DNA of 64,000 bases from Psilocybe cubensis (lineage: Eukaryota): assembly GCA_017499595.2 (NCBI GenBank), contig CM039004.1, forward strand, positions 620,001 to 684,000, given 5' to 3'. Below are positions 1,031-56,736 of the stretch, in pieces. A model generated the notes under the pieces. That model ran no database searches. It saw only the letters and a list, made by a program, of their open reading frames with translations, and had not been told where the DNA came from. Numbering within the stretch: the stretch's first letter is position 1; the number at the start of each line of letters is the position of its first letter. The position numbers and the translations under genes were made by a program.

Positions 1031-1504
1031 GGCTTGCTACAAAGATGTTCCTTTGCAAGTTTCAAGATGAATTTTCTTCTAAGCATCGCTACCCTTGGAC
1101 TGGGACTTCAAGCCTATGCTGTCATGATAGGTCCCTCCGCGACTTTGGTTATCGGAAACAAAAACATAGCTCCCGACGGAATTAAGCGCTCGTAACTTGA
1201 CCTTTTATTTTGTTACTCGTTTTGTTCTAAACAATCGCAGGGCTGTTTTAGCTGGAACTTCACTGGACACTCTATCTTTCCCCGGACCTGTAATTCGGGC
1301 CACAAAGGTACGTAAATTAATGGCTATTGCAATTTCATGAGTGGGAAACCGAGTGTACAATTTCTCAGGGCGACACGCTGAGCTTGAACGTCGTCAATCA
1401 GTTAACTGATGCCACTATGCTGATGGGCACGAGCATCGTGAGTACCTTTGTCTAGCCCTCATTATATTTCTTGAAGGTTTCTTCAGCATTGGCATGGTTT
1501 TCAT

Positions 1505-1516
1505 CAAAAAGGAACT
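1505..1516 (+). repeat. Target-site duplication, left copy (CAAAAAGGAACT)
   Basis: Identical to 3012-3023; encodes laccase Q-K-G-T. Confidence 0.95.
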
Positions 1517-3011
1517 TTTTTTTTTTTATTTTATGTTATAGCCTCTGAGGGGTGGGCCCCTCCCTTGGCTTAGTACTACCATTACAGTTTCTCTATATAG
1601 GTTGTAATCCTACTGTTCCATGTGTACTGTGTAAAGGAATAAGAAGTGTTGCTTATGAGAGATTACTAACATTTATTGCGGCGTGGTGTTTTCTGCGTGG
1701 GGTGCTGGAGTTGGAGTTGAAGGTTGAGGTTTCCTCTTCCGCTCCCGATATCGAGAGACTCGACACCAGGAGCCAAAGAGAAAAATGCCAGAGTGATAGA
1801 GCCGTTCTGTGATGTTCTTGTCTTCAAACCTAATGAGAATAGAAAGTCGGTCCTTCTGGAACTCCTCCCCATCGCGACAAAGAGCCCGTATTTGCCCTCG
1901 GATATCCTGCCTAGATACCCCTGCCTCATTTTCAAGTAATGACCATATGCTGTTTTTTGGAGTGGCGGAGTCGAAAGAGTCGCGAAGTGAATCGGCTGGG
2001 AGATCATGGACCACTATACCATGCCATGGCACATCCGAGTGAACTGTGGGTGGGTCACCAATAGTTGAATCAAAATTAGGAAAGCAATCGGAGGCCTGAG
2101 CTGCTTGAAGAATAGTCATCGGGCGAGCTTTTATTCTAGCAGTTCCAGTGTCGTTTGCAGTGTGGATAATGAGCCTTCCTGATTTTGAGACATTAGCTCC
2201 GAGAACATGACGAGGGGGGTCCCGTGACATTGGTGAGAGCTCGCTATTGAGTCGCTCCACAAAATCAGTGAGTGGACCAGATGGCTGTGTAAGTGGAAAG
2301 TCATCCCAGGATGCAATAAGGCGATTATTTGAGGAATAATGGCGGGTTGGACGAGTGACGTGAGGGCGGGTCTTAACAGGGCCTCCAGCAATTGGGGCTG
2401 GGGATGTCCTCTGCGGCGTGTGAGCTGGCTGAGCCACTGGTGTAGTTTTGGCCACTGTAGCGTATGACCGGGGCTCAGTAACCCTTTCAGGGTTTTGGGG
2501 GTGATATTCCGGGTCTGCCGGGAATAAGGTTGAGTGTAGCAGCAGAGCGGCGTGCATCGTTCGGTCACTGAGTGTGACGGTACCGTGAGAAATGCTCTGT
2601 ATAATCGCGACCGTTGCCAGAATGGAGTCCAGCAGCGTCTCGAGGTGAGCAACCTGTCCGGCAACAATGTCCGAAGACACAGCTGGCGGGGGCAGAGTAG
2701 ATGGGGGTGCAGCATCGGTGTTTGGGGCACTGTGTGGGTCCGCCAATGGTATGGGTGTGTTGACAGAGTGCTGTGGAGAGGGACCCGGAGGGGCATCCAC
2801 TGATTTCCGAGGGTGAGTTCTGCCTTTCTTTATAAGGCGCTTCGTATGGGGTGACCTCTTGGTCTGTAGCAGCTTTCGGCCATCACTCTCTGACTCTGTT
2901 GGGCCTGGGGTTGAGTCTGGAGAGCGCTGTCGCCGTGTACCCAGCAGCGGGGCCGGTGAGCTGGCACGCTGACCATGTTGATGGTGGTGGTTAGTGCGTG
3001 AGAACATCCTC
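1517..3011 (-). mobile_element. Non-autonomous non-LTR retroposon carrying only ORF1 (half-LINE / HAL1-like)
   Basis: Flanked by the direct repeat CAAAAAGGAACT (1505-1516 and 3012-3023). T-run 1516-1527 is a poly(A) tail on the minus strand. One intronless 444-aa ORF; interrupts a laccase exon. Confidence 0.92.
1673..3007 (-). CDS. LINE ORF1/gag-like protein (fungal Tad1-like), 444 aa, no CCHC knuckles
   Basis: Pro/Ser-rich basic N-terminus, a SYATVAK motif, and C-terminal motifs [10 protein letters not shown] and SILIRFED...[14 protein letters not shown] that resemble the region preceding the knuckles in fungal LINE ORF1. Confidence 0.75.
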
Positions 3012-3023
3012 CAAAAAGGAACT
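3012..3023 (+). repeat. Target-site duplication, right copy (CAAAAAGGAACT)
   Basis: Identical to 1505-1516; directly followed by laccase codons S-W-A-D-G. Confidence 0.95.
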
Positions 3024-5546
3024 AGTTGGGCAGACGGTGTTGTCGGCGTGACTCAGTGCCCTATTGCTCCTGGTCATTCTTTCCTATATCAGTTTCCCAC
3101 GGCCAACCAAGCTGGGACTTTTTGGTATCATTCTCATTACTGTGCGTATAGAGTCTAGGATATAAATCAAGGCGGAGATATTGATATATTTACTATACAG
3201 CTACACAGTATTGCGATGGCCTTAGAGGAGCTTTGATTGTTTATGATCCAACCGATCCCTATAGAACCTGGTGCGTGTTTTAATGGTAGCGCTAAAAATT
3301 AGTTTAAATTCATCCTAATTTATTTATATACGTAGGTATGATATCGACGACGGTAAGTCTCCCCTGTTTCGTCCCTTGCTAAGAAGCTGATAGCGACGAT
3401 TCTTGTCCTATCATGTGTCACAGAAAGTACAATCATTACCCTTGCAGATTGGTGGGTTCCAATATGACGTGTATTGCTCAGCCGTAATCTGACTTCCTTT
3501 TCGAAACAAAGGTATCATAAGGCTGCTCCTCTACAGACCCTCCGAACTGCTAAGGAAGATTCAGTTCTGATCAACGGGCAAGGTCGCGTTCCCGGAGATA
3601 AAACTACTGATTCAACTCCCTTGTCAGTCATAAACATAATTCCCCAAAAGCGATATCGGTTCCGTCTCATTTCAATTTCGTGTGATCCTGCATTTTCTTT
3701 CTCGATTGATGGTCATTCTATGGTAAGTCCGCTTATCAAATTTGTTAATCTAATTTTCATATGACATACTACATGATAGACCGTCATCGAAGCTGACTCT
3801 CAGAGCGTGCAACCTCTTACTGTGAATGAAATTACTATCTTCGCGGGTCAACGATATTCTTTTATTCTTTATGCCAATAATCCGGTCGGAAACTACTGGA
3901 TTCGGTCGCAGCCTACATACCCAGATGATGGGATACAAGGCTATGCAGGAGGCATCAACTCTGCCATACTACGTTACTCTGGAGCCCCCGCAGTCAATCC
4001 AACGACAAAAAAGGCTTCCATTACTATTCCTTTGGTTGAAGCAGATCTACGGCCTCTCTATAGCCCGGCCGCCCCGGGCCTTCCATCTCCAGGAGCTGCC
4101 GACGTCAACATCAAGCTCGATATTTCTTACAACTCACCTTCCGAGACGTTTTTCGTTAATAATTTCACCTTCCCAGAAGTCCCGGTTCCAGTGTTGCTCC
4201 AGATACTCAGCGGAGCCCAGTCAGCAAATGATTTGCTCCCCGCCGGATCGGTTTATACTCTCCCCCCTAATAAAGTCATAGAAATATCTATGCCCGGTGG
4301 AAGGCCCGGAAGCCCAGTAAGCTTCTCAGTTACACAAATCGTTTTCAACCCCTCTTATCTTGCCGCCTATAGCACCCTATGCATTTGCATGGCGTATGTG
4401 ATTGATCTTCATGTAGTTGACGTTACCTGACGACTCTTTTTAGCACGATTTCTCCGTCGTGCGAAGCGCCGGCAGCAATCGGTACAACTATGCCAATCCT
4501 GTCAGGCGCGACGTAGTGAACATAGGAAGGGAAGATACGGACAACGTTACCATACGTTTCAAGACCGACAATTCCGGCCCTTGGATCCTGCACTGGTGTG
4601 TCTGCCTATTCCACTATAGCCACATATTCATGCCCTGATTACGCACACATCAGCCACATTGATTGGCATATTGAGGCGTAAGTCTCAATCAGTGAAAAGC
4701 CTTTAATGATGAGATTGAATACTTTTTCTCCAGTGGTTTGGCGGTGGTTTTCACAGAGGACATTCCATCCATTCAATTCAGCAGCCCTCCTCGTACGCCT
4801 CCATGTACTATTTTCATTGATACCCTTGACTCAGATCATTTATCTAGCTGCTTGGGATCAACTTTGTCCCATTTTCAACGCCATACCTCCTCAAAAGTTC
4901 CATTAATCGGCATCGTCTTCTAGCCGTCGGAGCACCAATGCTTGGATACACCGCGTCCATGTACCTCACCGGATGGTTAGGAGAATGAAGTGCCGTCAAA
5001 TTTCAAGCTTGTAGTATTTTTCGTTTCTACTCAAACCCAGTTCACTTTTTGTTACTGTGCTGCGAATGAAGATCATACGTTGTATAAACATATTACAACT
5101 GTTCAGTATATTCTGATGGTTTAAACAATAGCCCCACAAAAAGAATGGATTGAATTATGACAACAGTAACCTACCTGGACAGAATTCCTTTCCTGTATGC
5201 TCCTATCACGAATTAAACGTAGTCTTGATACTATCAACCTCTAACTCTAACTCGGTCCTGATCACTGGCAATCACTGTACTAGATGCAGATCGAACTAGA
5301 AATAAAAGCGTTCATAGTATCTAGTCTATCCGATAATATACACCAATTTTGGCTTCCTGCGAACCTCATGGGCTATAGTGCTACGGGAGGTTTGTAGACA
5401 GGCAAGACTATCACTTGGCAGTAGTTTGGCATTTATTAGTAAGTAAGAGAGACAGACGAAATGGTCTGCTGATGACGTCGAGATATTCACTCAATCAGAG
5501 TATATTATGATGCCGACTACACGATACCTCCAGTTTGCCTCGTACC

Positions 5547-5892: not shown

Positions 5893-6520
5893 ATTCAACC
5901 AACAAGGACGCCTGCAAGGTTTCCGTAGTACAAAGTGTTGTCCATTACTCCACAACCGTGAAATGTACTAGCTTGGTAGTGTTATTCAGAATAAAAACAA
6001 CAAAATATTGGCTTGATTTGGAGCAATCAAAGTTCAACGAAAGATTTGGATACCAATCTGAACGTGGAAAACACTTGTCTATAATCCAAGCTCATAAAAT
6101 CATGCTCTACTAGCCATAAGTAGTGCTCTGCTGTAATTTTCAGGGCGCCGTTCCTGGTCTCTGTCCATCCCGTTCATCTCAAGTGATCCTATTGATATTG
6201 GCCAAGCTTAGGTACTGACAAATGCATTTTCCCACGGCACTCATAGGTGCCGCTCGAGATGACTTACTAATAGTGGTATGGGAGAGCAGGTGTTTTCAAG
6301 TATGACATTCAGGAGTAGTGAGCGCGAGAGTCAGCTATGTGTCTACCATGCTGAAGTTCTACACTTTAAAGCGTTCTAGTGGAATAAAAACGACTCATTT
6401 CGGAATCGATGAGCGGGTGTCCCAAAATGGGTTGGTTTGTACCACCCGTTTTAGAAAGTGTACTGCCTATTCGAGTCTCAAGTTGTTGTATTTTAGGTAT
6501 ATCATCGGCATTAAATTATG

Positions 6521-6528
6521 TATAAAAG
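6521..6528 (+). promoter_or_regulatory. TATA box of KEP gene
   Basis: TATAAAAG, followed by two apparent 5'UTR introns (GTGAGT..AACAG and GTATCG..AACAG) before the ATG at 6729. Confidence 0.55.
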
Positions 6529-6728
6529 GGAAGAGAATGTACCCCATCCTCCATCGAGCTCCCCAGCTTCACTCTTAAGGTGAGTGAGCTTTCAGTCACC
6601 TGCTACCAGCTTGCATTAGTAACGGACACGCAAACAGTTCAAAAATACTTTTGAATCGAATTATCACCGTAGGTATCGGTTGACCTCGAGAGTCAGAACA
6701 GCTTGCTGACTCCGATTGTTAACAGAAA

Positions 6729-7430
6729 ATGTTTCCCTCAATGACTCTGACTATCCTTGTGCTGTCCGCCCTGATTTCCAACGCTATTGCCCTGCCTCAG
6801 TTCAGCGGTAATGGAAATAATGGGAACATCAACTCAGGAAACGGAGGCAATGAGAGCGGAAATGGACATGGTGGATACAACAGTGCCAACAGAAACGGTG
6901 GTTTTTACCCAGACTACAGAATACCATTCTACCGCCGGGAGCCAGAACCAGAACCACAATTCAGCGGTGATGAAAATAACGGGAATATCAACTCCGGAAA
7001 TGGAGGATACGGTAGTGGTAATGGAGATGGCGGGGCCTATAACAGCAACGAAAACGACGATATGTTCTCGTACGGAGGATACAAGTACGACATGCCCATT
7101 CCAATGTACCACCGCGAGCCAGAGCCAGAACCGCAATTCAGCGGTAACGGAAATAACGGCAATATCAACTCCGGAAATGGAGGACACGGTAGTGGAAATG
7201 GAAATGGCGGGACCCATAACAGCAACGGAAACGGCGGTGTCTCCTCGCACAGAGGGTATTACCCGTACGACATGCCAGTGTACTACCGTGAGCCAGAGCC
7301 AGAGCCCCAGTTCACTGGAGACGGCAATAACGGCAACGTCAACTCTGGAAACGGAGGCCACCACAGTGGCAATGGGTACGGTGGTTCCGGCAACGCACAC
7401 GGAAATGGTGGTCACAGGTACCATTACTGA
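6729..7430 (+). CDS. Kex2-processed repeat protein (KEP): secreted precursor of four Gly/Asn-rich peptides
   Basis: Signal peptide, then four repeats starting QF(S/T)G..NNGN(I/V)NSGNGG, separated by RR-EPEPEP, HR-EPEPEP and YR-EPEPEP. Confidence 0.85.
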   Translation: MFPSMTLTILVLSALISNAIALPQFSGNGNNGNINSGNGGNESGNGHGGYNSANRNGGFYPDYRIPFYRREPEPEPQFSGDENNGNINSGNGGYGSGNGDGGAYNSNENDDMFSYGGYKYDMPIPMYHREPEPEPQFSGNGNNGNINSGNGGHGSGNGNGGTHNSNGNGGVSSHRGYYPYDMPVYYREPEPEPQFTGDGNNGNVNSGNGGHHSGNGYGGSGNAHGNGGHRYHY

Positions 7431-7789
7431 TTCTCCAAGGATGTCCACCGCAAGCATGAATGAAGGGAAAGGGATATATGAAAGAAAGAAAGAAAGAAAG
7501 AAGAGGATAATTAGATAGCGTGTATATCAAAACAATACACGTACTATTCATGCAATGCAAGTTGGTTTCTGTTGGCAATACAGATAGTTTTGAGTAACCT
7601 GGAGCAGAGATGATCGACAGAGAGTTTTCCCATTCAGTTACTTGTTTCATAAACGCAGAGATCAGAAGAACTGATTGAAACTTCAAGCCTCAATGTTTGT
7701 TCTGAGTGAGCTTTCGCGCGATTTGGACATACAAAATGATAAAATATATTACATGTATACAATGAGTTCGGTTGAGATTGGTTCAAACT

Positions 7790-9879
7790 TCAACGAATGA
7801 AAATAGTCTTAACCTCTGTATAGGCATCGATGGCTATAGAGGTGGAGTGGTCAGTTCCCCCGCATTGGATTCACAGATTTGGGTACTCACAATGATGTCC
7901 GAGTTCACGACCAATGCCGGAGCCTTTCCAGCCGCCGAAAGCAAGGTCTGGGTGGGCATTTCCTGTAGTGTTCACGCCGACCTGTCCAGCTTCGAGTCCT
8001 TTGGCGAATCGAATGGCGCGTGAAACGTCTTTCGTGAAGACACTGACGAGGAGAATCAGTTTACCCTTGCTCGAGTGCAGATTGAACAAATGACTTACTA
8101 AGCCGCCAAGCCATACTCAGTATCGTTTGCCCTGTACTTTTCATGAATTTTGTGTGTTATATATTTTTACCATTATCACACACCTCTTCAGCACTTCCTC
8201 CTCTGTGGTGAATTTGTGGAGTATTGCCACTGGACCAAATATCTCTTCCTTGTTGATTATAGCATCATCTTTGACATCAACGAATATGGTAGGTTTGACA
8301 TAGAATCCCTAGGACACAGAGAAAATAAAATTTCTGAAGAAAGGACGAAAAATCACTCGTACCTTTTCATCTCCGGCGGCTCCACCAGTCAGAACCTTAG
8401 CACCTTCAGCTTTCCCAGTTTCGATATATTGCAGGACGCGTTTATGCTGAACGGAGAATTAGCCAGCATTACATGGCTGACTTTTGTACAACGTACCTGA
8501 AGAATGTCGACTTGCGGACCCGAAGAGTATGACTCGTCAGTGGGGTCTCCGACTTTGTAACTTTGAGCAGCCGCAGAAAGCTTTTCCGAAAACTTGTCGA
8601 AGATCGTGTCTTGGACATACACCCGCGTTCCAGCGATGCAAATCTGACCGGAATTTCTATTGAATCCACCCAGAACTCTGCGATGGATAAAAATGAGTAA
8701 ACCGGTAGGCCATTCGAAGGTATGATACGTACCTGGTGACGGCATCTTCCATGTCACAATCGTCGAACACGATGACAGGGCTTTTACCACCAAGCTCAAG
8801 CGTGCACGACTTCAGGTTGGACCGTGCAGCAGCCTCTGCGACGGCCTTCCCAGCAATAGCAGAACCGGTAAAAGCAATTTTACGAATGCGCATATGGGAA
8901 GCCAGGAGCTGTCCTGTCTCCCGGGCGCCACTCAGGATGCTCAAAACACCGTCAGGGAGTCTGTACACCGTCATTAAAGGGTTTGGCTACGATACGGATG
9001 TGATGTACATACCCAGCTTTCACGGCAAGTTCTGCAAAAATAAGAGCACTGAGAGGTGACTTCTCACTGGTCTTAATAATACTTGCATTTCCAGTAGCCA
9101 CTAGTTGAAAGAAATGAAGGTGAGTTCACCTTCATTGCTGCTGTTCAAAGAAGAAACTTACACGCTGGCGCCGTTTTCCATGCAAGCATAGCAAGAGGCC
9201 CGTTCCTATTTACACAATATAATCTTTTAGTGATTGGCCAAGTATTAATTTAGAGGATAACGCACCAGGGTATGATTCCGGCTGTGACACCATACGGTTG
9301 ACGAATCTCCAAACCCAAAAAGCCTGGTACATTCAAACTAGTCTTTCCGTGTATTTTATCTCTATAGTTGGGAGGAATTAGCACTACTTCATTAGATAGT
9401 TCGATCAAAACTTACGCCGCTCCAGCAAACCAGCGATAGACATATGCGACACCGTGGGCCTCGATACTAGGCGACAGAAATGTTAGTTATGACTATTTCC
9501 ATTTAAGGCTAACAGATTAGGCGTACATTGAATCCTTCAGGGGTTTTCCCATCTCCAACGATTGTACCATCCCAAGAGTGTTAGCATTTTCATCAACAAG
9601 ATCGGCCAGTTTGTGCATGATTCTGGAGCGGGTAGACGGGTCACCGTCAGCCCACGCAGGCCATGCCTTTTCTGCAGCGTCGACTGCAGCATCAACCTCT
9701 TTCTGTCCTGCAACGTGCACTGATGCTAACTTCTCTTTGTTGGCGGGATTGATTACGTCGATGCGTTCGCCATTACCCTCGACAAACTACAACACGGTTA
9801 TCATTAAGAGTAAGGAAAACGAGAGGTATAGACGAACCTTTCCAGCAATAAATAGGCGTTCTTCGAGTTGAATTGACAT
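7790..9879 (-). CDS. Aldehyde dehydrogenase (copy 1)
   Basis: [21 protein letters not shown] (catalytic Cys), EEIFGPV, FGGWKGSGIGRELG; ends KTIFIR*. Confidence 0.93.
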
Positions 9880-11212
9880 GGTGGGGTAAAATTCAGTTCT
9901 TATCGATGAATTCGACTGTCCTCTTGAAAGGCCCCTTCTTATAGAAACCTTGCCCACCAATGTCACGCCTCACATGGACGTAAAGAGGGGACCTCGGCAT
10001 GGAACGTGTATGCGATGGCCCAGAATAGTACCCGACACCGAAGCAAGTTTCCCAATGTGATTCCATTTTTCACTTTGAGGGGGCAGATTTTAACATATAA
10101 TAAGGTCTTGTTCGTCGGAAAGATTCAGAAGCGTTACTTCATGGATAAATGAATTATCATGTGGAGCAATGCGAGTACCCAAAGCAACCGGGAGCAAGTC
10201 AGTGGGTATGACAATGAGAAAAGAGATTCACTCCTACAGTTCCCGTCTCCCAACAAAAACTTGCTTATTAAGACGTAGCTTCGAATTCCGTCTGTATCCG
10301 AGTATTTCTGTGTCGCCAATTCGCTTAGCAAGCGATCTTACACCGTCCTCGTAGAGAGATCCTTTAATAGAATGGTGATGTCCGGCATTTTAGTACAGCA
10401 GCTCTGTAAAAGGCGGATATTGAGAATCCACCGTTGAGATATGGAAGAGATTGCGATGAGGGTCGTGGAAAAGATTACCGACGTTCGTGTTCAACGCGTA
10501 AGCAGGTGCAAACAGTCGGCTATTCCGGGTTTCTTTCAACCGGTTGACTGTTATAATGAAGTCTGAGCGACCTTCACACAACCTTGACATTGCTTTACAT
10601 GTTGATCACTAAATAGTACTAGCCATTAGAATAAATCAAAACACACTATATTCTGGATTTCTGACCGAAGTGACAGTATGTAATCGCGATCTATTCTCAT
10701 TGGCATGTGCACGAGAAAACTCCGTACTGTAGAATAGCAGGATCAAACATCACCACGAACTTACTTGCAAACAAATCTCACCAAGTCCGAAATTGCATTT
10801 AGGTTCAATTTTCAGGCTCTTAGGTCTGCGTTGAGAGGAAAGGAAATGATATGTCATGTCAAGTTCAAAAGAATGGCTTCGTCCGTCACCGAAATGGACG
10901 TCGAAGCAGCATGTATCAAGCTCGGGCCCGAGCCTATTACGTGGAATCATTTTGATTTTCTTATCACAAAAACTAAACTTCTAAGCTCATCACGAAATGC
11001 TGGACGTGTTGGGGAACATTGAAAGCTGCGTCAAGATGCTGTAAAAAAATTGATGGAATCATGCCTGTGAGAGTAACCAGATTCTTAGCAGACGCAGTGC
11101 GTAAAACGATAAGAGAAGTCATTGACAAGAATTAAATTTTTTGAAGACAACAGAACGAGTGCACTGTTTCTAGAATGTAATCCGATCCAGCGCCTGCGAC
11201 CTATGCTAAAAC

Positions 11213-13264
11213 TCATCGAATGAAAATAGTCTTGACCTCTGTATATGCTTCGATAGCTAACAGAAAAGTGAAGCAAAAGATTATCATAATGAACGCTTTT
11301 GATATGATTGACATAAACTGACCATAATCACCTAGCTCACGTCCGACTCCAGACCCTTTCCATCCACCGTAAGCAAGGTTTGGGTGTGCCATGGCGACGG
11401 TATTAACTCCAACCTGTCCGCTTTCAAGACCTTTTACGAAGCGGACCGCCCTGGAGATGTCCTTGGTAAAAACACTAATATCGCAAGCATTCAGTTACAT
11501 TTGTGTATTTCTACTATTTAGTACAATTAGTACTCACTATGCAGCCAGCCCATATTCGCTATTATTTGCCCTACAAAATTCGTGATTAAAAGGATTTCAT
11601 TTAACTTCAAGATAGCATACCTCTTTAAAGCCTCCTCTTCTGTTATAAATTTATGAAGAACGCCAACTGGTCCGAAGATTTCCTCTTTGCTAATTGTAGC
11701 GTCTTCATCGACATTGACGAATATCGTGGGTTTCACATAATACCCCTATGTATGTGTAATGCATTGGTTAGTGAGTCGCTTTAACTCGTGAGAAAAACCA
11801 ACCTTTTCATCGCCAGGAACGCCACCAATTAGAACACTTCCCCCTTCCGTTTTTCCTGTTTCAATGTATTGAATAACGCGATTATGCTGTATAAATTTTA
11901 GTAACTTGATTATCTTCGAAAAATGATTGGACACAACCTGGATAGAATCCACCTGCGGCCCCGACCAGGACGTCGAGTCAGTTGGGTCACCGACTTTCAG
12001 CGTTTTAGCAGCAGCGATCAATTTCTCAGAGAAAGAGTCGAAAATAGTGTCTTGCACGTATATCCTGGTCGCAGCCGCGCACATTTGACCCGAGTTCTGG
12101 GTGAAGCCACCATGCACTCTGGATACCGCGTCCTCGAGATCGCAGTCATCGAAAACAATGACAGGACTTTTACCCCCAAGTTCGAGGGTGACTGTCTTGA
12201 GGTTGGATGTAGCAGCAGCACGGGCAACGGCTTTCCCTGTTGCTGTGGATCCTGTAAAGGATATTTTACGAATCCGCATGTGAGATACTATTAACTCTCC
12301 TGTCTCGCGCGCCCCGCTAAGTATGCTAAGAATTCCATCTGGGATGCTATCTAAATCATGAGAAAGGCACAGAGGCAAGCAGATGTGCAATCGTGCGTAC
12401 CCAGCGTCTTTAGCCAAAGCGGCAAACAAAAGTGCACTGAGGGGAGACTTCTCGCTCGTCTTGATGATGCTTGCGTTTCCGGTGGCGACTATCACACCAA
12501 TTTAGCTATTGAAGAGTCTCTTCCGGACACTGAGTCAACATACGTGCAGGAGCAACTTTCCACGCCAATGTAGCTAGAGGACCATTCCTAGTATATATCG
12601 ATGAGAACCACTGAATATATGCACAATTATCGACGAACTTACCATGGAATGATACCAGCCGTAACGCCATAAGGCTGCCTAATTTCCATTCCAAGAAACC
12701 CTGGAACATTGAGGCTGGTCTTGCCGTGGACTTTGTCACTGGAGGTATGCACGTAAGTCGCAATAAAATTCTACTTGCTCAACAAACTCACGCTATGCCG
12801 GCGAAATATCGGAAGAGATAAGCAACATAATGGACTTCGCCGCTGTAATATGACTATCAGAAATCGCAGATAGTTATCACTGCTGGCCGTGGCTCTGAAA
12901 AAGACTTACATCGATTGGACAACTGGTTTCCCCATCTCCATGGTTTGTACAGTCCCGAGACGGTCGGCGTGTTCGTCGACGAGGTCACCTAATTTATGCA
13001 ACACCTTTGCGCGTAGAGCGGGATCACCGTTCGCCCATGCAGGCCAGGCTTTCTCGGCTGCATCAACCGCTGCGTCGACCTCTTTTTCACCTGCAACGTG
13101 CACAGATGCTATTTCTTGCTTTGTAGCTGGATTAACTACGACGATTCGTTTGCCATTCCCTTCGGTAAACTGATATTCAAAGTAAGCGTCCACTGCACAG
13201 TGAGGTGAGATACGTGACGTACCTTTCCGCCGATAAAAAGTCTTTCTTCGAGTTCGATTGACAT
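11213..13264 (-). CDS. Aldehyde dehydrogenase (copy 2, tandem paralog)
   Basis: [29 protein letters not shown]; same MSIxLEERLFI start and KTIFIR* end as copy 1. Confidence 0.93.
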
Positions 13265-20765: not shown

Positions 20766-21082
20766 AGCCTTGAGGCTAGAGGCTCGCGGTATCGTCTTGA
20801 TTCTTGATGTCTATTCCGTAAAGTAACGTCAGAACGCCCTGACGAAAGCCCAAAGTGTATTGAACGAAGTAAATTGTTTTACAAACAGAATATGTAAATG
20901 TGCAATATCGAAGGTGTTCGTGAGATGGGTTGTATGTACAATCGTCCAAAAATGCAAGAATGGCGAAGATAGAAGTGGGTCAAATGATACAACGAATTAA
21001 GGGTACATTGACATGTTAAGGGTCCATTAGTGTCATTTCGTTAAAGTCCGTTCAAAGTCCAATGGAGCTTTATGCTCCTAAA

Positions 21083-21661
21083 TCAAAACTGGACACCGGA
21101 GCCCTTAATCTTGAAGGTAGGCGAGAAGTTTCCAGAATCGCCGAATACTATGCCAATTCATTCGTGTAAGCGAGGGCTTCTTGGAAGCGATATCACAAGG
21201 ATTACTTACAGACGAGCTGATAATCTCCTTCAACTACAAGAGGGACGGTGACCTGAATCTTGCCCTGGAGAATGTCGAAGTTCTGAGCAAGGATCACTGA
21301 GAAATGGGGTTTAGTGCTAGTTTGCGGGGGAGATTAGAAACAGACTAACAAGGTGTTGTGAGGTCATCTCTGCGAAGCATGATGCGGCCAATCTTGTTGG
21401 TGATGTTGACTGGGCGGTCAGAGATATCCCTAAAGATCGAAAGATGAGATTCGAAAATGGGACTTTTCAAGGTATTGACTCTACTCACCAGGTAACAAGG
21501 CGGCGCTGGCCTGAAGTCCAAACAGCACCTGCATGAGGTTCCACAATGGGAGGAACGAAAACGTCGCGTTGCTCGAGAGTGTTAGCTGGCAATGCAGAGA
21601 CGCCAGAAGTGAAGGCGACGAGGAGAAGAGAGGCGGCGGTCGTGAGGCTCGTGAATTTCAT
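21083..21661 (-). CDS. Small secreted Kre9/Knh1-N-like (Ig-like) protein, paralog A
   Basis: MKFTSLTTAASLLLVAF...RDVFVPPIVEPHAGAVWTSGQRRLVTW...LFGDSGNFSPTFKIKGSGVQF*; 4 exons. Confidence 0.8.
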
Positions 21662-23377
21662 TGTGAGGAAGGGAATTAAGATATTAGATGGGTCGTAAAC
21701 GATAAGAGTAGTGAAGATTAGAGCTCGTAAAGCTTGAAGCTTTTGAAGATGGGAAACACAGAGAGGACGATCGCCCCTATATATACGAAATATACGTCAA
21801 CCTATACATAGGCGCAGTCGGCGTCCTTCCTCCGTTAAGATCTGTGCAATGGGCCCCGGTCTCGGCGAATCGGGCTCCTCGACGTGCAACAAATTCTAAG
21901 AAAAGACAGCCTCGTCGCTTGTTAAGCCGTAAGCTATCGGGTGAAACGTTCTCCGTATTACTTTCATAACCTGCAAAAGGTAGACCCCGCCGTCGAGAGC
22001 ATCAAGAAGGCCATAAGCATCGGTTCCTTGTGGATCATTTGTCTGCGTCAATCTAAAAAGTGCAGTAAAGGGCGAAACTTCCAGAACGATCCGCGTGGAA
22101 GCTGCGAATCTGCTCGAAATTCAAAGATAAAAGGCGGTAAGTGTCAGTAAAAGATCTGGCTTCTTACTCATGAAAGCTTTGAAACTTGTTAGATCGATCA
22201 GAGAATGTACAACCTTTGCGCTAGGCTAGCAGATTTGTGGGCAACACGGTGCTGACGCAGATTCAAAATGCAGTGGCTGAGGAGAGAAAGCTGAGTTTGG
22301 CCGAGATCCGAGAAGACAGGCGTCAATAAGAAGATCCGCAGAATTGGCAGTGAATGGCTGTGACGGCAAGATTTGGCCGTCATGAAGCGCAGAGAAGACA
22401 GAGCTGGGCTCTTCACGGTGCTGGTATAGGCGCGTAGCCCTCCGATGGCGCAACATTGCTCAGTCTAGCCAGAGACTTTCACCGACGTCTGAGTAATCCG
22501 GGTTTGAACTTTCCTACTGCCATACGAACCACGGTGTGAATATTCCGCTGAAACAGCGATGGATTCCGAGTAGCTTACGGACGACTGTACAGTATCGACT
22601 TTGGAAAATTCTGGATAAACTCGACAAGAAATTTGTGATAATGAGGCGAGGCAGAGCTAGGGGAGGCGCACGCAAGCTTGTGAAGTTCCCGACTTGCCCG
22701 ACTAGGAGCCGCCGGCGGATGCCGTCATCCATCTTTGGACAATTATAGGGGGGATGGGGTTGATTTGACAATTGAATAAGGAATAGAGGTGTGATAAATC
22801 TCTGTAGACATATAGGCGTCATTGGTAAATGCATGGTGACATCTTCAAGATTTCAGGTAGTCAATCCCAGCCTCATATTGGCTTCAAGACCAAAACCACT
22901 ATGTTATTCAAATTTGTCGTCTTTTTCGCAACGTGTTGGAAGTCTGGGGTAATATGATGACCTCAAGATACAGAAAAAAAGTCCCAATATGTATTAATTT
23001 ATCTGTCTATAGGCGATCCTGTACTGTGACGCTCATACCCCATGACTGAAAAATTGATATATACACACCAAACAGGCGCCCAAATCTGCTTGGCAACTGA
23101 GAGGACAGCTCAACAGCTACCATATATGATATCAGACCCGCAGGAATATCATACTGTGAATTCTTAAGAGTAAGAAAAGGAAATATATATTTTTTTTGGA
23201 AAAATTCTTTTCAATCTAAGAGGGTTCAACAAGAAACACGCGAATAGGATAGACGTCAGAATATCATTCACTGAGGCAAACTACAGGATGCCTAACTATA
23301 GAACCCGATTCACTATCAACACCGTAGACGAGGTCAAACTATTATCAAAGTCTGAAGATTTGAAGCAAGCACCCAAG

Positions 23378-23973
23378 TTAAAATTGAACACCGGAGCCAG
23401 TGATCGTGAACTTGGGGGAGAAATTTCCAGAGTCTCCAAACACTTTATTGCAAGAGTCAGCACTCAGCCAATAAACACTACTTCAGAAATAAATTTGGAA
23501 TATCAATGCTCACGGAGAAGTTCATAGTCGCTTCCTTCAACCACCAATGGCACAGTAACTTCAATTTGTCCATCCAGGATATTGAAATTCTCAGCAAGGA
23601 TCACTTCAAAAGTTCAAATTACAAATCAGCACAGTAACTTTAATAATAGCCAATTCTCTGAACGTACAAGGTGTAGTCAAGTCGTCTTTGCGGAGCTTCA
23701 CAAGTCCAACTTTGTTCGTGATGGTGGCAGGAGCATTGGAAACATCCCTGTGATGGAGAACACATCAACATCGTACAAGTTCTAGCCGTCTACCCGCAGA
23801 AAATCAACAACCACATACCAAGTGACAAGTTGCTGCTGGCCAGAGGTCCATATCTCCCCTGCTACAGGTTTGGTGATGGGAGGAACGAAGACGTCCAAAG
23901 CGGCTCCAGAGACGCTGGATACCAAACCGAGAACGAGCACAGAGGCAAAGGTAGAGAACTTGGTAAACTTCAT
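23378..23973 (-). CDS. Small secreted Kre9/Knh1-N-like (Ig-like) protein, paralog B
   Basis: MKFTKFSTFASVLVLGL...DVFVPPITKPVAGEIWTSGQQQLVTW...LFGDSGNFSPKFTITGSGVQF*; same intron positions as paralog A. Confidence 0.8.
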
Positions 23974-38221: not shown

Positions 38222-38530
38222 CTGTAATCCTCCTCCCCGGTATCCACTGATTTGCGGCTCTGGTTCACGATACCACAATCGCCCGCCGTTTGCGTTACCA
38301 TTATGGGTAGCACCACAGTTCCAAGTTGCAACTGTGGTGTCCTGCGTTCCCAGAATTTTCATTTTCGTCTTCCCCTATGTCCGCTGAACTGCGGCTCTGG
38401 TTCTGGTTCACGGTACCAGATATGATTATAACCACCATTATTGTTCGCGCTGCTGTGGCCGCCATTACCATTACCGCTACCGTATCCTCCGTTTCCTTTA
38501 CCGTTTCCATTGTGCGCAATTGATGTTATC
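38222..38530 (-). pseudogene. Frameshifted relic of the Gly/Asn-rich KEP family (paralog of 6729-7430)
   Basis: Reads GNGGYGSGNGNGGHSSANNNGG..WYREPEPEPQFSG, then NSGNAGHHS, then THNGNANGGRLWYREPEPQISG, each in a shifted frame. No signal peptide. Confidence 0.8.
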
Positions 38531-38708
38531 GCTTCTCACGTGCCAGGCGGCATCTCACACGCTGCTATCTTCGGCAAGATGCACCCTAAACCCTTTCTGA
38601 GTTTTAACCATTGAGTTCGTCTTAACCTGCGCATGCATTTTTTGTAGTTGCATGGTAGGATCATCTCATACTTTGTAACCGCCAAGTCACTGCTTATGCC
38701 ATGTTCAG

Positions 38709-40247
38709 ATGATCGAAATCCTCCAACCCAATGTGTTCTCTCCAATACCAAACGAGGTAATCGCAAAGATTTTCTTTGAAGGGACAGAAAACTGGAAGCA
38801 CAATATGTTTGAAAACGACACCTATATCCATGCCTTGCCATTCCCGGAAGTCGTTGCAGGGGTATGCAGACACTGGAGGGCACTCTCACATGAAACCCCG
38901 GAGCTTTGGACTTTTATTTGTCCCCCAACTGCAGAAATTTGTCTCCGGTGGATATCAAAATGGATTCAGCGATCGAAGTCTATGCAGGTTGAAATCGTAC
39001 TGGACGAAAAAAAATTGCCCGGCATTGATAAACTAATGACAGAAATCCTAACACTGTTAGACGTTTGTGTCAGTCGGTTATGTCGCTTCGACCTTCGGTT
39101 AGAAGACATCCCTATCAGCGTACTATCTGGCTTCTCCCAGCTTGCATCTAGAGCCACGTATCTACAGCAGCTCTCGCTTTGCAATGTGTCTTCCAGACGA
39201 ACTTCCTTTGATCTAGCCGAAGGCGGAGATTACTCTTCGTTGTGCAATATTACTTCCTTATCACGCCTCAGATTCACCGGACTGTCTCTTCCATTTAATC
39301 CGCATCTCGTTTCGCTCGATGTACGTGACCTCCAACTCACATATTCCGACTTGCAAACAATCTTTGGAGTGGAATGTCGTTTACGAAACCTGGTGCTCTA
39401 TGGCCTTCGCCCAATTCACCCATCCCCTCAATCCCCTAGCAGACCAATTCAAGTTAAATCTCTTAAAACCATTGCATTGTCAATCAATGCCGCTATCGCA
39501 TCCGTGGACTCGACTTATCCTTTTTCGTTTCTTGATATGCCCAACGTGACATACTTGGAGATGGATTGCAGCGCATCTCTTACCGCTATTTTTGGAAAGT
39601 CACTGGCGTCGGCAAACATCGATACTCTCAAATTTACGAACCATTTACCTCGTCTAGTGGCTCCACCGCATACTGTGGAAAACCACGAGGAAATTCAATT
39701 TCTACAATCCTTTTCCAGTCTACGCAAACTGGAGCTCACCCATGTACCCGCTAAATTTCTGTTGAGCAAGTTCACGACTAACAGTAGTCCCTCAAGGCGC
39801 GAGGTGACTCGGCAACGCTCGATAGGCTCTCATATGCTCCAAGCCAGTCGAGTGGATTATCGCGCACACAACATCACCGTTGAACCATTGGAAGAAACGG
39901 TCGCGACCTGGCCTAATCTCGCCTTTATTCGTCTTGATACAGCCATTGCAGAAGACGTTGTATCCTTGATTTCATTCATACAATGTCACAGAAGCGTCCG
40001 TACCATTGAGCTCTCTACATCAGCAATGCGACATCTCAGCTTCTTAAAAAGAAAGGGCGATACCGTTTCTACTAGCCCTCCGGATATTTTATTCCGACTT
40101 AACCGGAGACGTACTTTGGAGGGCGATGAGGGCTCCACAGAGGACGTTAAAGAGTGGTTGAGCAGCATAGTTGACTTGAAGACAGCCGCGCCGACCAATA
40201 ACCTATTATCAAATGGCGGATCTGGCCTGCTTTCACGATTGCCGTAG
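38709..40247 (+). CDS. F-box-like / LRR-like protein, intronless, 512 aa
   Basis: IPNEVIAKIF...VAGVCRHWRALSHETPELWTFI, followed by LxxLxL repeats. Confidence 0.85.
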   Translation: MIEILQPNVFSPIPNEVIAKIFFEGTENWKHNMFENDTYIHALPFPEVVAGVCRHWRALSHETPELWTFICPPTAEICLRWISKWIQRSKSMQVEIVLDEKKLPGIDKLMTEILTLLDVCVSRLCRFDLRLEDIPISVLSGFSQLASRATYLQQLSLCNVSSRRTSFDLAEGGDYSSLCNITSLSRLRFTGLSLPFNPHLVSLDVRDLQLTYSDLQTIFGVECRLRNLVLYGLRPIHPSPQSPSRPIQVKSLKTIALSINAAIASVDSTYPFSFLDMPNVTYLEMDCSASLTAIFGKSLASANIDTLKFTNHLPRLVAPPHTVENHEEIQFLQSFSSLRKLELTHVPAKFLLSKFTTNSSPSRREVTRQRSIGSHMLQASRVDYRAHNITVEPLEETVATWPNLAFIRLDTAIAEDVVSLISFIQCHRSVRTIELSTSAMRHLSFLKRKGDTVSTSPPDILFRLNRRRTLEGDEGSTEDVKEWLSSIVDLKTAAPTNNLLSNGGSGLLSRLP

Positions 40248-54329: not shown

Positions 54330-55913
54330 CTAAGGTAGTTGTACCAGTGGAACTTCCTTGGTGGATGGCAACAAACTTTCAAGGTCGAGGGTATCTTCCA
54401 TTAAATCCAAATGAACCATAACGCTCAACCACTCCTCCACATCTGCAGTCCCAATATCTTTATCTTCCTCAAATGGAGACCCCCTTCCAGATAGAATTAT
54501 TGGAGGAGATGTGATCACTGTATTGCCTTTCCTTCTCAAGAACCGTAAATGTCGCATGGCCAAGTACGATAAATTGAGGGAACGAATTCCTTTGTGGTAT
54601 GTTATGAAGGATATCAAGGACACTACATCATCTGCTAGCATTGTATCAAGCGATATCGTGTGCAATTTAGGCCATACCGCCTCAAGGGAATCCTCGGATC
54701 CCTTTGATTTTGCGTGGAGGACTGCAGGAGGAAGGCCATTGGAGTCAATTATGGAGCCCATAGATGGCTTTCGATTGGGAAACTTTCCTCCACTGGAGAC
54801 AGTAAATCTATCCAGTAATGTCTTTGCTGATACCCGTATAAGTTCCAAGGATTGCAGTGATGAAAACGACCGAAGAACATTGGTATCTTCGTTCTCAGCC
54901 TCGCGAACGATAGGTAGAGCGTTCCTTATTCTTAGGGTGTGGATTTTGGATGAAGAAAGGGACTGACCAAACACCCCAAAAATACTTGTGTCGAGGTCCA
55001 ACTCCAAATACGTGACATTTGGCATATCAAGACAGGAAAACAGGTATGTGGACGTTCTTAAAGAAGGACTTTTGTTATTGCTGACTGCAATAAACTGTAG
55101 GGAGTTTACTCGAGTTCGAGGACCAGATAAGGCGATACTTGGTATTATAGGGTATAGATCAGGGAGGATGAGATATTTGAGCCGACAGTTGTCTCCGAAG
55201 AGCACTGAGATGTCCGCAAATGGTAAATTTAGTTTGTGTACCTCCAAGCAGGTCAGCTGGGGGGTATATGGGAGTGGCAGGCCTTGATATCTGAGCCTTT
55301 GTAAGCCAGTTAACTGCTCAAGCCAGGATGAGTTGCTGGTGTGAAACACCGCTTCTGTGTGTGGCGTTCCTATGAACGGTACACTTGTATATGTCTGACA
55401 AAGGGAAAGCTGCTGAAGCCCAGTCGCCTTCCCAAGGATCCTAGAGATGTACTGCACCGGAACGAGCTCCACCCGAATGTCAAAACGGTGTAGCCGATGT
55501 GCGAAAACTTCCACAAAATCCAGGATCTCGAATAATATGGTTTCCGATAATGGATCCCGACGATTCGTGTTCCTTGCCCATGCCTTGTTGTCCATAATTA
55601 CGGCGACGGGCAACGCTTTTGACCTTTCGAACCAGTTCGACATCCATGCGATACATCCTTCAGCAGTTGGGGGCTGTATTTGTGTCCACAACTCGGGCGT
55701 ACTTTGTGCGAGGGCTCTCCAGTGTTTGCACACTCCTGAAACAAGGTCTGGAAATGGCACGGTCCTCGTTCTATCCTTAGTGCGACCACGGGCGGCGAAA
55801 TCGAGGGCTTCCTTCCAACTCTCGGTTCCTTGATAGAATATCCTTGCAGTTACCTCGTTTGGGATCTGGTCAAAAATGCTGCAGTGAAGAGTCGAAGCTT
55901 CGGCCACCTCCAT
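54330..55913 (-). CDS. F-box-like / LRR-like protein, intronless, 527 aa (paralog of 38709-40247)
   Basis: IPNEVTARIF...VSGVCKHWRALAQSTPELWT; shares LDMPNVTYLE, DVVSLISFI and AMRHL.FL.RKG.TV.TSPP with the other copy. Confidence 0.85.
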   Translation of the reverse strand: MEVAEASTLHCSIFDQIPNEVTARIFYQGTESWKEALDFAARGRTKDRTRTVPFPDLVSGVCKHWRALAQSTPELWTQIQPPTAEGCIAWMSNWFERSKALPVAVIMDNKAWARNTNRRDPLSETILFEILDFVEVFAHRLHRFDIRVELVPVQYISRILGKATGLQQLSLCQTYTSVPFIGTPHTEAVFHTSNSSWLEQLTGLQRLRYQGLPLPYTPQLTCLEVHKLNLPFADISVLFGDNCRLKYLILPDLYPIIPSIALSGPRTRVNSLQFIAVSNNKSPSLRTSTYLFSCLDMPNVTYLELDLDTSIFGVFGQSLSSSKIHTLRIRNALPIVREAENEDTNVLRSFSSLQSLELIRVSAKTLLDRFTVSSGGKFPNRKPSMGSIIDSNGLPPAVLHAKSKGSEDSLEAVWPKLHTISLDTMLADDVVSLISFITYHKGIRSLNLSYLAMRHLRFLRRKGNTVITSPPIILSGRGSPFEEDKDIGTADVEEWLSVMVHLDLMEDTLDLESLLPSTKEVPLVQLP

Positions 55914-56736
55914 CTTGCGGCACGCACCTATGAATCAGGCTTGCGAACGACGCGGAAGAGCCTTAAATATCTCACCAGTATTGTGCCAAATGAGCGCTAC
56001 TCTTGTAAGTTAGAACCTGCAGAATGGGTGTTTCAAGTTCGACCTTGGTCGGGTACTGGTGAATGGGAGTGACAGTCGACTGAGAAGACTTTACAAGCCA
56101 AAATATCCAGTGACCTGGTGACCCTCGGGTTTAGGGTTTATATAAATATTGACATCAGTAATGTGTTTTACTTTATCTATTTTGAGTTTATATCAATTTC
56201 ACATTGAAGTACGCGCAATGGCATGGGTCTTCAACCTCGCAGAACTCTTAGAATTAACATCAAAAATTTTTAAGAAATAATTTCAACCAATAAGCCTGCT
56301 CCGTATGTATCAGTCCTTAGTGCATCCAAGTCAAGTGCGGGACTCGAATATAAAGCGCACGACTCAATGCTCCGATCCTCAGAGCAAGGTAGAAACGAGC
56401 TTGGGCGGCATGCATCATGTTCAATCAACCATATGATTGCGCCTGACCATCGGAAGAGACGGAGAGTCGGGATACCGAATTCTGTTTAAGATACAAGCGC
56501 AACAGAAGGCGCCGGCAGATAGTAATCATTCAGAATACGGATTTGCATGGGGTTTTGTACTGGTACTGGTCTTGAATCAGGGGCAGGTTTTTTATAGACA
56601 TCGGGTAGGCGTAAGGTTTTCTATGGACCCAAAAGTTGACATTCGGATGTTATCCTTCCAGGAATATATTATAGAAAATCTGAAAAAGTGGCCTGTCAAC
56701 CACAAATTGCAGAAAATGTACGTACGACCATCGGTA

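Follow-up and report, generated by a model that had tools for sequence, protein, structure and literature searches.

A recent retroposon insertion in exon 4 of the psilocin laccase gene psiL, very probably a natural null allele of Psilocybe cubensis

The laccase PsiL and its partner phosphatase PsiP form the cascade credited with the blueing of injured Psilocybe cubensis, in which psilocin is oxidised. In the parts of the source that were covered, PsiL was assigned by peptide fingerprinting of a mixed native fraction: the active fraction of fruiting bodies contained 7 proteins, PsiL was the sole oxidase among them and no paralog was recovered (PMC7004109). Neither recombinant PsiL nor a psiL mutant appears in the main text or in the supplement parts covered, and the blue colour was also produced by a foreign laccase, a peroxidase or Fe(III) (PMC7004109). 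Here we describe a stretch of 64,000 nucleotides of P. cubensis DNA (assembly GCA_017499595.2, contig CM039004.1, positions 620,001 to 684,000), hereafter the window, in which psiL is interrupted by a retroposon that encodes a single open reading frame (ORF), of the ORF1 type, and no reverse transcriptase (RT).

Two described elements come close to this retroposon, and they were the sole comparable systems found in the literature searched for fungal ORF1-only elements. HAL1 (half-L1) of mammals is likewise non-autonomous and ORF1-only, with a poly(A) tail, target-site duplications and full-length copies (PMC5753468, in the part covered). In Marasmius oreades, MarorLINE-6 is an active element of the long interspersed nuclear element (LINE) type with no predicted RT, and was proposed to borrow one from a related LINE (PMC9674265, in the part covered); it is thus a mushroom precedent for an RT-less element like the one found here. 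As argued below, we are highly confident that the window holds a recent natural loss-of-function allele of psiL, in which an ORF1-only retroposon would have entered exon 4 with the help of the RT of a resident LINE.

To establish the identity of the gene, the insert and one copy of its flanking duplication were removed in silico. The resulting empty-site model has 14 exons and 13 GT..AG introns of 49-71 nt, and its coding sequence of 1,587 nt specifies 528 amino acids, with a terminal stop only, no internal stop and no frameshift. From ATG to stop, the interrupted locus measures 3,840 bp, and 2,333 bp are left once 1,507 bp are subtracted. Table S2 of the published work gives for psiL 2,333 bp, 13 introns and a 1,587-nt cDNA (PMC7004109, in the part covered), so that gene length, intron number and cDNA length are all the same in the window after this subtraction. 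The empty-site protein is identical to the database entry 'psilocin laccase' (QGJ16927.1, P0277) at 525 of 528 residues, the differences being F374/S, R460/M and S507/N (window/published). The mass computed from the published PsiL sequence, 57,444 Da, is that of Table S5 (PMC7004109, in the part covered), and the 18-residue signal peptide described for PsiL is encoded within exons 1-3 (PMC7004109, Figure S3 legend). Pfam finds PF00394 in the psiL protein, as expected for a fungal laccase of the multicopper oxidase class. All four copper motifs, by what we take to be their definitions in fungal laccases, are present in the empty-site protein, ending in HCHIDWHIEAGL.

The gene has no second copy in the assembly searched (G000): the longest psiL exon gave 21 matches, one of them at 100%, and the DNA from exon 3 to exon 4 before the insert gave a single match, in an assembly that may be incomplete. 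In spliced contigs of sequencing run X10, 11 of the 13 psiL introns are seen as joints (two of them as one joint with the letters of a mini-exon in between), intron 1 is seen as a loose end, and intron 3 is absent from the listing. These comparisons support the view that the gene is psiL itself, more than a look-alike. An earlier note, written from the letters of the window, had proposed that the laccase may be PsiL, with a hand-counted length of about 528 residues, four intact copper motifs and no other stop or frameshift; the model bears out each of these points, and the comparison with PsiL that the note called for returned near-identity. The published psiL and PsiL (MN117956, QGJ16927.1; PMC7004109) therefore agree with the window gene in size, introns and coding sequence; unlike them, the window allele carries a 1,507-bp insertion in exon 4 and stops after 115 amino acids. 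The features of the locus are collected in Table 1.

Table 1. Positions in the window of the interrupted psiL gene and of the inserted element.
Feature	Position	Strand	Remark
psiL gene, interrupted allele, ATG to stop	1067..4906	+	14 exons, 13 introns
Exons 1-3	1067-1191, 1241-1307, 1369-1437 (span 1067..1437)	+	
Exon 4, 5' part	1487..1516	+	HWHG copper motif and next six codons
Target-site duplication, left copy	1505..1516	.	12 bp
ORF1-only non-LTR (long terminal repeat) retroposon	1517..3011	-	1,495 bp, antisense to psiL, full length for family
Element 3' tail	1517..1579	-	poly(A) at 1517-1527 and hairpin common to autonomous LINEs
Premature TAG on read-through from exon 4	1571..1573	+	
Element ORF	1673..3007	-	444 amino acids, no zinc knuckle, no RT
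Target-site duplication, right copy	3012..3023	.	12 bp
Exon 4, 3' part	3024..3141	+	remainder of first copper motif and WYHSH of second
Exons 5-9	3201-3270, 3336-3352, 3424-3451, 3512-3722, 3780-4316	+	no lesion
Exons 10-14	4373-4393, 4444-4595, 4654-4677, 4734-4792, 4848-4906	+	no lesion
Third and fourth copper motifs, within exons 5-14	3201..4906	+	

The insert is bounded by two copies of a 12-mer that has no further occurrence on either strand of the window. Its plus strand starts with a run of T, and its minus strand reads as one ORF, a short 3' region and a poly(A). Since the window repeat scan lists no terminal repeats on it, the insert combines the three marks of a non-LTR retroposon: a target-site duplication, a 3' poly(A) and the lack of terminal repeats.

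The consequences for the reading frame are severe. Read-through from exon 4, which is broken six codons past HWHG, runs into the premature TAG, as the earlier note had it, and gives a product of 115 amino acids, 97 of which are laccase; HWHG alone of the four copper motifs precedes the stop. The insert is no intron, because its ends are CA..TC and not GT..AG. We also considered whether the allele might be leaky, cryptic splicing removing most of the insert to give a near-full-length and partly active laccase. For this, 243 single-intron donor/acceptor pairs were tried (GT or GC donors at 1438 and at 1487-1575, AG acceptors after 2700 and at 3201). An open frame was kept in 23 of them, for example with donor 1552 and acceptor 3026, which would give 539 amino acids, keep HWH and DG and lengthen the loop between. 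However, no pair yields the 528-residue wild type, and all 23 frame-keeping pairs delete HWH or alter the loop that follows it in the first copper motif region. An intron of about 1.5 kb would be needed, compared to 49-71 nt for the 13 real ones, and the consensus-like donors within the insert (2268, 2289 and 2813) come after the stop. Leaky expression is therefore very improbable, and the DNA predicts that the insertion allele is very probably null.

Is the allele present in real mushrooms, and in which state? Contigs or reads were placed on the window for 4 of 14 sequencing runs (X1, X4, X10 and X13); for the other 10, shares of words are no genotype evidence, since words of the insert also stem from other copies. 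In X1, the contigs 958-1549 and 2982-4399 span both junctions with 0 differences at depths of 10.3 and 10.2. In X4, the contigs 1185-1545 and 2982-4399 do the same, again with 0 differences, at depths of 56.5 and 59.6, compared to 61.7 downstream. The depth of the junction contigs is thus that of the unique flanks in both runs, and no empty-site joint is listed among the contigs of either. X13, raw DNA reads from another study, shows the empty site: 31 reads with 18 different starts join 1504 to 3012. The same joint, in which 12 letters fit on either side, recurs in X10, a run of a third study, on a spliced contig where the shorter side has 18 letters. In X10 we read it as an empty allele rather than a splice-out, because the insert ends are CA..TC, because the DNA of X13 has the same joint, and because X10 carries the published letters S374 and M460. 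Overall, the filled site is seen in 2 of the 4 runs (one study) and the empty site in the other 2 (two studies). The reads across the junctions that the earlier note had asked for thus uphold its insertion and add an empty counterpart.

Because junction contigs come without an empty allele in two samples, and empty sites are found in other studies, we conclude that the allele is real and polymorphic, and that its carriers are probably homozygous. An assembly artefact, by which a repeat was put at the wrong site, is extremely unlikely: the element is indeed repetitive and has a near-identical copy elsewhere (L002), but the target-site duplication is peculiar to this site, other copies have duplications of their own, and junction contigs were built in two short-read runs. 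As to homozygosity, mushroom tissue is normally dikaryotic, and the carrier might be a heterozygote in which the assembly shows one nucleus while the other holds an intact psiL, the second variant being lost from the contigs. We regard this as very unlikely, since single contigs of X1 and X4 run unbroken through the duplication at full flank depth with no empty-site joint listed, and a second psiL copy is absent from G000. No contig breaks at the duplication, where two alleles should cause a break, and the samples are inferred to be homozygous or haploid.

The element itself belongs to a family with at least 38 matches in G000, of which 30 were fetched; all copy counts given here are lower bounds. 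Five copies are full length and in a single piece (L001-L005). Substitutions relative to the window copy number 1 in L002, then 13, 49 and 62, and those of the two older copies are mostly C-to-T or G-to-A (31/49 and 50/62). L001-L003 have an open ORF; that of L004 and L005 is broken. Flush target-site duplications of their own were found at L002, L003 and L005, and none flush at L004. One further copy is split by nested insertions (L007 and L008 together), another has an internal duplication (L006/L009) and another is 5'-truncated (L010). Judged from its perfect duplication, its open ORF and the single substitution that separates it from L002, the insertion is young, in keeping with the recent date that the earlier note had given it. 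Element contigs are present in X10 at a depth of 323-389, which suggests that the family is transcribed. Reads of X13 that stem from other element copies have mainly C>T (71 places) and G>A (96) differences, the pattern that decay of methyl-cytosine would leave. Loose ends among the X13 and X10 reads that fall in the insert point to further insertion sites of the element. Three nested, young-looking insertions lie at G000:C11:1220643-1234586 (L061, L062), where an antisense LINE has split a 99%-identical copy of the element and has in turn received an LTR retrotransposon.

The protein encoded by this single ORF has a disordered N-terminus, a helical hairpin, two regions like the RNA recognition motif (RRM), at about 225-325 and 327-424, and a basic tail. 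No Pfam family came above cut-off, either with the ORF or with its 58-member alignment. The predicted structure (mean pLDDT, the predicted local distance difference test, of 75) shows two RRM-like domains, and the best Foldseek matches of this model are tandem RRMs (E 9e-7, with low TM-scores). For residues 225-325, the VIA structure comparison gave a Z of 8.6, a root-mean-square deviation (rmsd) of 3.0 and 80 aligned residues; it also lists LINE-1 ORF1p (2w7a; Z 6.6, rmsd 3.0, 83 aligned), one of many RRMs with tied scores. The models support an ORF1-type protein with two RRM-like domains. A search of 1.84 billion representative sequences returned 121 homologs at E <= 0.001, and the 10 proteins looked up include ones of Flammula alnicola and Schizopora paradoxa. 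A CCHC knuckle is absent from all 121. The terminal motif was matched in 62 homologs, and 57 of these end at most 40 residues past it.

Which machinery could mobilise such an element? The terminal 63 nt of its 3' end are identical at 59 positions to those of two LINEs, L057 (G000:C4, about 2349600-2355660) and L058 (C5, about 1129120-1135180), and form the same hairpin, with a folding z of -1.9 for the element and -3.6 for the LINE. The hairpin pattern is found in 24 of the 30 fetched loci, a count that includes duplicates as well as loci lacking a 3' end, and many of the short element matches in G000 are in fact 3' ends of long LINE ORF2 frames. L057 and L058 are 6,058 bp long and 99.95% alike, each with an open ORF1 that has two CCHC knuckles and an open ORF2 with endonuclease, RT and RNase H. 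With its RNase H and knuckled ORF1, this LINE presumably fits the fungal Tad1/Inkcap clades rather than L1. The element is not a simple deletion derivative of the LINEs compared, as blastn matches to the LINE loci L057-L062 were confined to its 3' 63-69 nt. Pairwise blastp and phmmer searches of the element ORF against the LINE ORF1 in these loci found no match. With hhalign, a profile built from the element ORF and 57 of its 121 homologs picked for coverage (58 sequences in all) aligned over 153 columns with a profile of three resident LINE ORF1s (90%, E 1.6e-6, 16% identity). The alignment stops where the knuckles of the LINE ORF1 start, and these knuckles are missing from the element protein family.

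Based on the shared 3' tail, mobilisation in trans by a LINE ORF2 is inferred, and L057 and L058 are the likely candidate RT donors, each with 6.06 kb and two ORFs compared to 1,495 bp and one ORF for the element. The comparisons also support a HAL1-like description, namely an ORF1-only, putatively non-autonomous element with a 3' end in common with an autonomous LINE. Unlike HAL1, the element is fungal, its DNA similarity to the LINE is limited to the last 63 nt, and the two ORF1 proteins are only about 16% identical. MarorLINE-6 differs in that no protein domain was reported in it by its authors (PMC9674265, in the part covered).

Taken together, the allele would have arisen as follows. A transcript of the ORF1-only retroposon would have been copied into psiL exon 4, antisense to the gene, by target-primed reverse transcription, leaving the 12-bp duplication and the poly(A) tail. 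The RT would have been borrowed from a resident LINE ending in the same hairpin. The interrupted message would then yield a 115-residue stub with one of the four copper motifs, or be degraded, and carriers would make no PsiL.

Some points weigh against this reading. The LINE partner rests on 63 shared bases, and several LINE families, at 64-85% identity, share the tail. The null call is a prediction from the DNA sequence. X1 and X4 are different samples of one study and X1 is possibly the source of the assembly, which leaves at most 1 independent filled sample. On the insert side, overlaps are short (33/30 letters in X1, 29/30 in X4), so that 3 of the 4 fall slightly below our bridging rule of 31 letters. 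Finally, a minor allele can be dropped from contigs, which makes homozygosity probable, not proven.

What the loss of PsiL would mean for blueing depends on the neighbouring genes. The gene is the last of three tandem laccases on G000:C7, which start near 613,080, 616,912 and 621,067, and a fourth close paralog lies on G000:C8. The two tandem paralogs, directly upstream of the window (G000:C7:613080-619220; L052:2580-4856 and 6412-8720), are 81% and 77% identical to PsiL. Gene models of all three paralogs give open laccases of 522-524 amino acids, with 13 introns and four copper motifs, at 77-81% identity to PsiL. The public model of the second tandem paralog (P0154) has 398 amino acids, where the DNA models as 524 with one GC donor. 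Without the insert, the three-laccase array is 10,320 bp long here. The coordinates that Table S2 prints for psiL cover 10,317 bp (PMC7004109, in the part covered), which suggests that the reference used in that work has the same three-gene array with an empty site.

These three intact paralogs may compensate for the loss of psiL, and we lean towards the expectation that carriers still blue, fully or partly, through them. The earlier note had proposed that this may be a natural null affecting blueing or psilocin stability; the allele is natural, polymorphic and very probably null, but the note had missed the paralogs. The opposite view is that PsiL is the dominant psilocin oxidase, in which case homozygous carriers, with psiP intact, would turn blue late or only faintly and would retain more of their psilocin once injured. 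That PsiL was recovered without its paralogs, as the sole oxidase of the 7-protein active fraction (PMC7004109, in the part covered), speaks for this view, and against ours, as it argues for a minor role of the paralogs in that strain. The depth of the psiL contigs in X10, 6,836-9,348 compared to the 323-389 of the element (a rough measure), points the same way. So does psiP (L071:1053-3186, on G000:C2), which by its span is free of large insertions: the gene measures 2,134 bp between ATG and stop, compared to a published length of 2,138 bp (PMC7004109, in the part covered). Set against a dominant PsiL are the three intact paralogs and the unrelated oxidants that also act on psilocin. The P. 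cyanescens 'PsiL-like' protein, 72.0% identical to PsiL and 71.7-73.1% to the three paralogs, counts against it as well: being 71.7-73.1% identical to all four, it is not a partner specific to PsiL, for which no one-to-one partner is demonstrated in that species. On balance, dominance of PsiL seems to us rather unlikely, and blueing through the paralogs remains our preferred expectation.

In the public annotation, the model P0157 ('Laccase') covers 243 amino acids from Met245 of psiL. It has F374 and R460 as in the window, and neither the signal peptide nor the first two copper motifs are part of it. The ORF of the element is a separate protein entry, its sister copies are named hypothetical proteins, and the database cluster of PsiL is represented by the 243-residue fragment. 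The gene has thus been split, as the earlier note had foreseen, and with a fragment model and a separate ORF entry the lesion may be easy to miss. No report of a psiL lesion was found in the literature searched, which was without most subscription journals and bioRxiv supplements, and in the covered part of a review of P. cubensis strains, terms for bruising, laccase and transposons are absent (PMC11856550). Population-genomic work on P. cubensis could already hold the allele unseen.

Other features were recorded in the window. An ORF at 6723-7430 (+) encodes a small secreted-looking protein with four Gly/Asn-rich repeats and R-E-P-E-P-E-P-Q-F linkers, which we take to resemble a processed repeat-peptide precursor; an inverted stretch related to it lies at 38228-38497. 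Tandem duplicate genes about 3.4 kb apart at 7785-13264 (-) are presumably aldehyde dehydrogenases, judging by their motifs. At 21074-23895 lies a further tandem duplicate, its copies 72-75% identical and spaced by about 2.3 kb. Finally, two related long ORFs of 522 and 534 amino acids lie in inverted orientation at 38679-40247 (+) and 54330-55934 (-), and their N-termini look F-box-like.

A retroelement breaking a gene is an ordinary kind of event; here it hits the one gene to which a well-known trait is ascribed. With the public annotation, a 243-residue fragment plus a hypothetical protein, psiL would be misread in expression or variant studies. Given that PsiL was assigned from a mixed protein fraction, a null allele makes this assignment genetically testable, and a natural null that segregates and is simply followed by PCR permits the test without transformation: loss of blueing would confirm PsiL, while normal blueing would show redundancy. 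The allele also bears on strain differences in psilocin loss after injury, and it shows that an ORF1-only retroposon acts as a mutagen in present-day P. cubensis. Our boldest proposal, which we put forward tentatively and would not yet count on, is that a P. cubensis lineage is homozygous psiL-null and nevertheless blues, and that the mutagen is an active member of an old, widespread, knuckle-less family of ORF1-only mushroom retroposons that use LINEs through a 60-nt 3' hairpin. If nulls do blue, PsiL would be dispensable, blueing would proceed via the close paralogs, two beside psiL and one on C8, and the one-enzyme PsiP/PsiL cascade would need revision.

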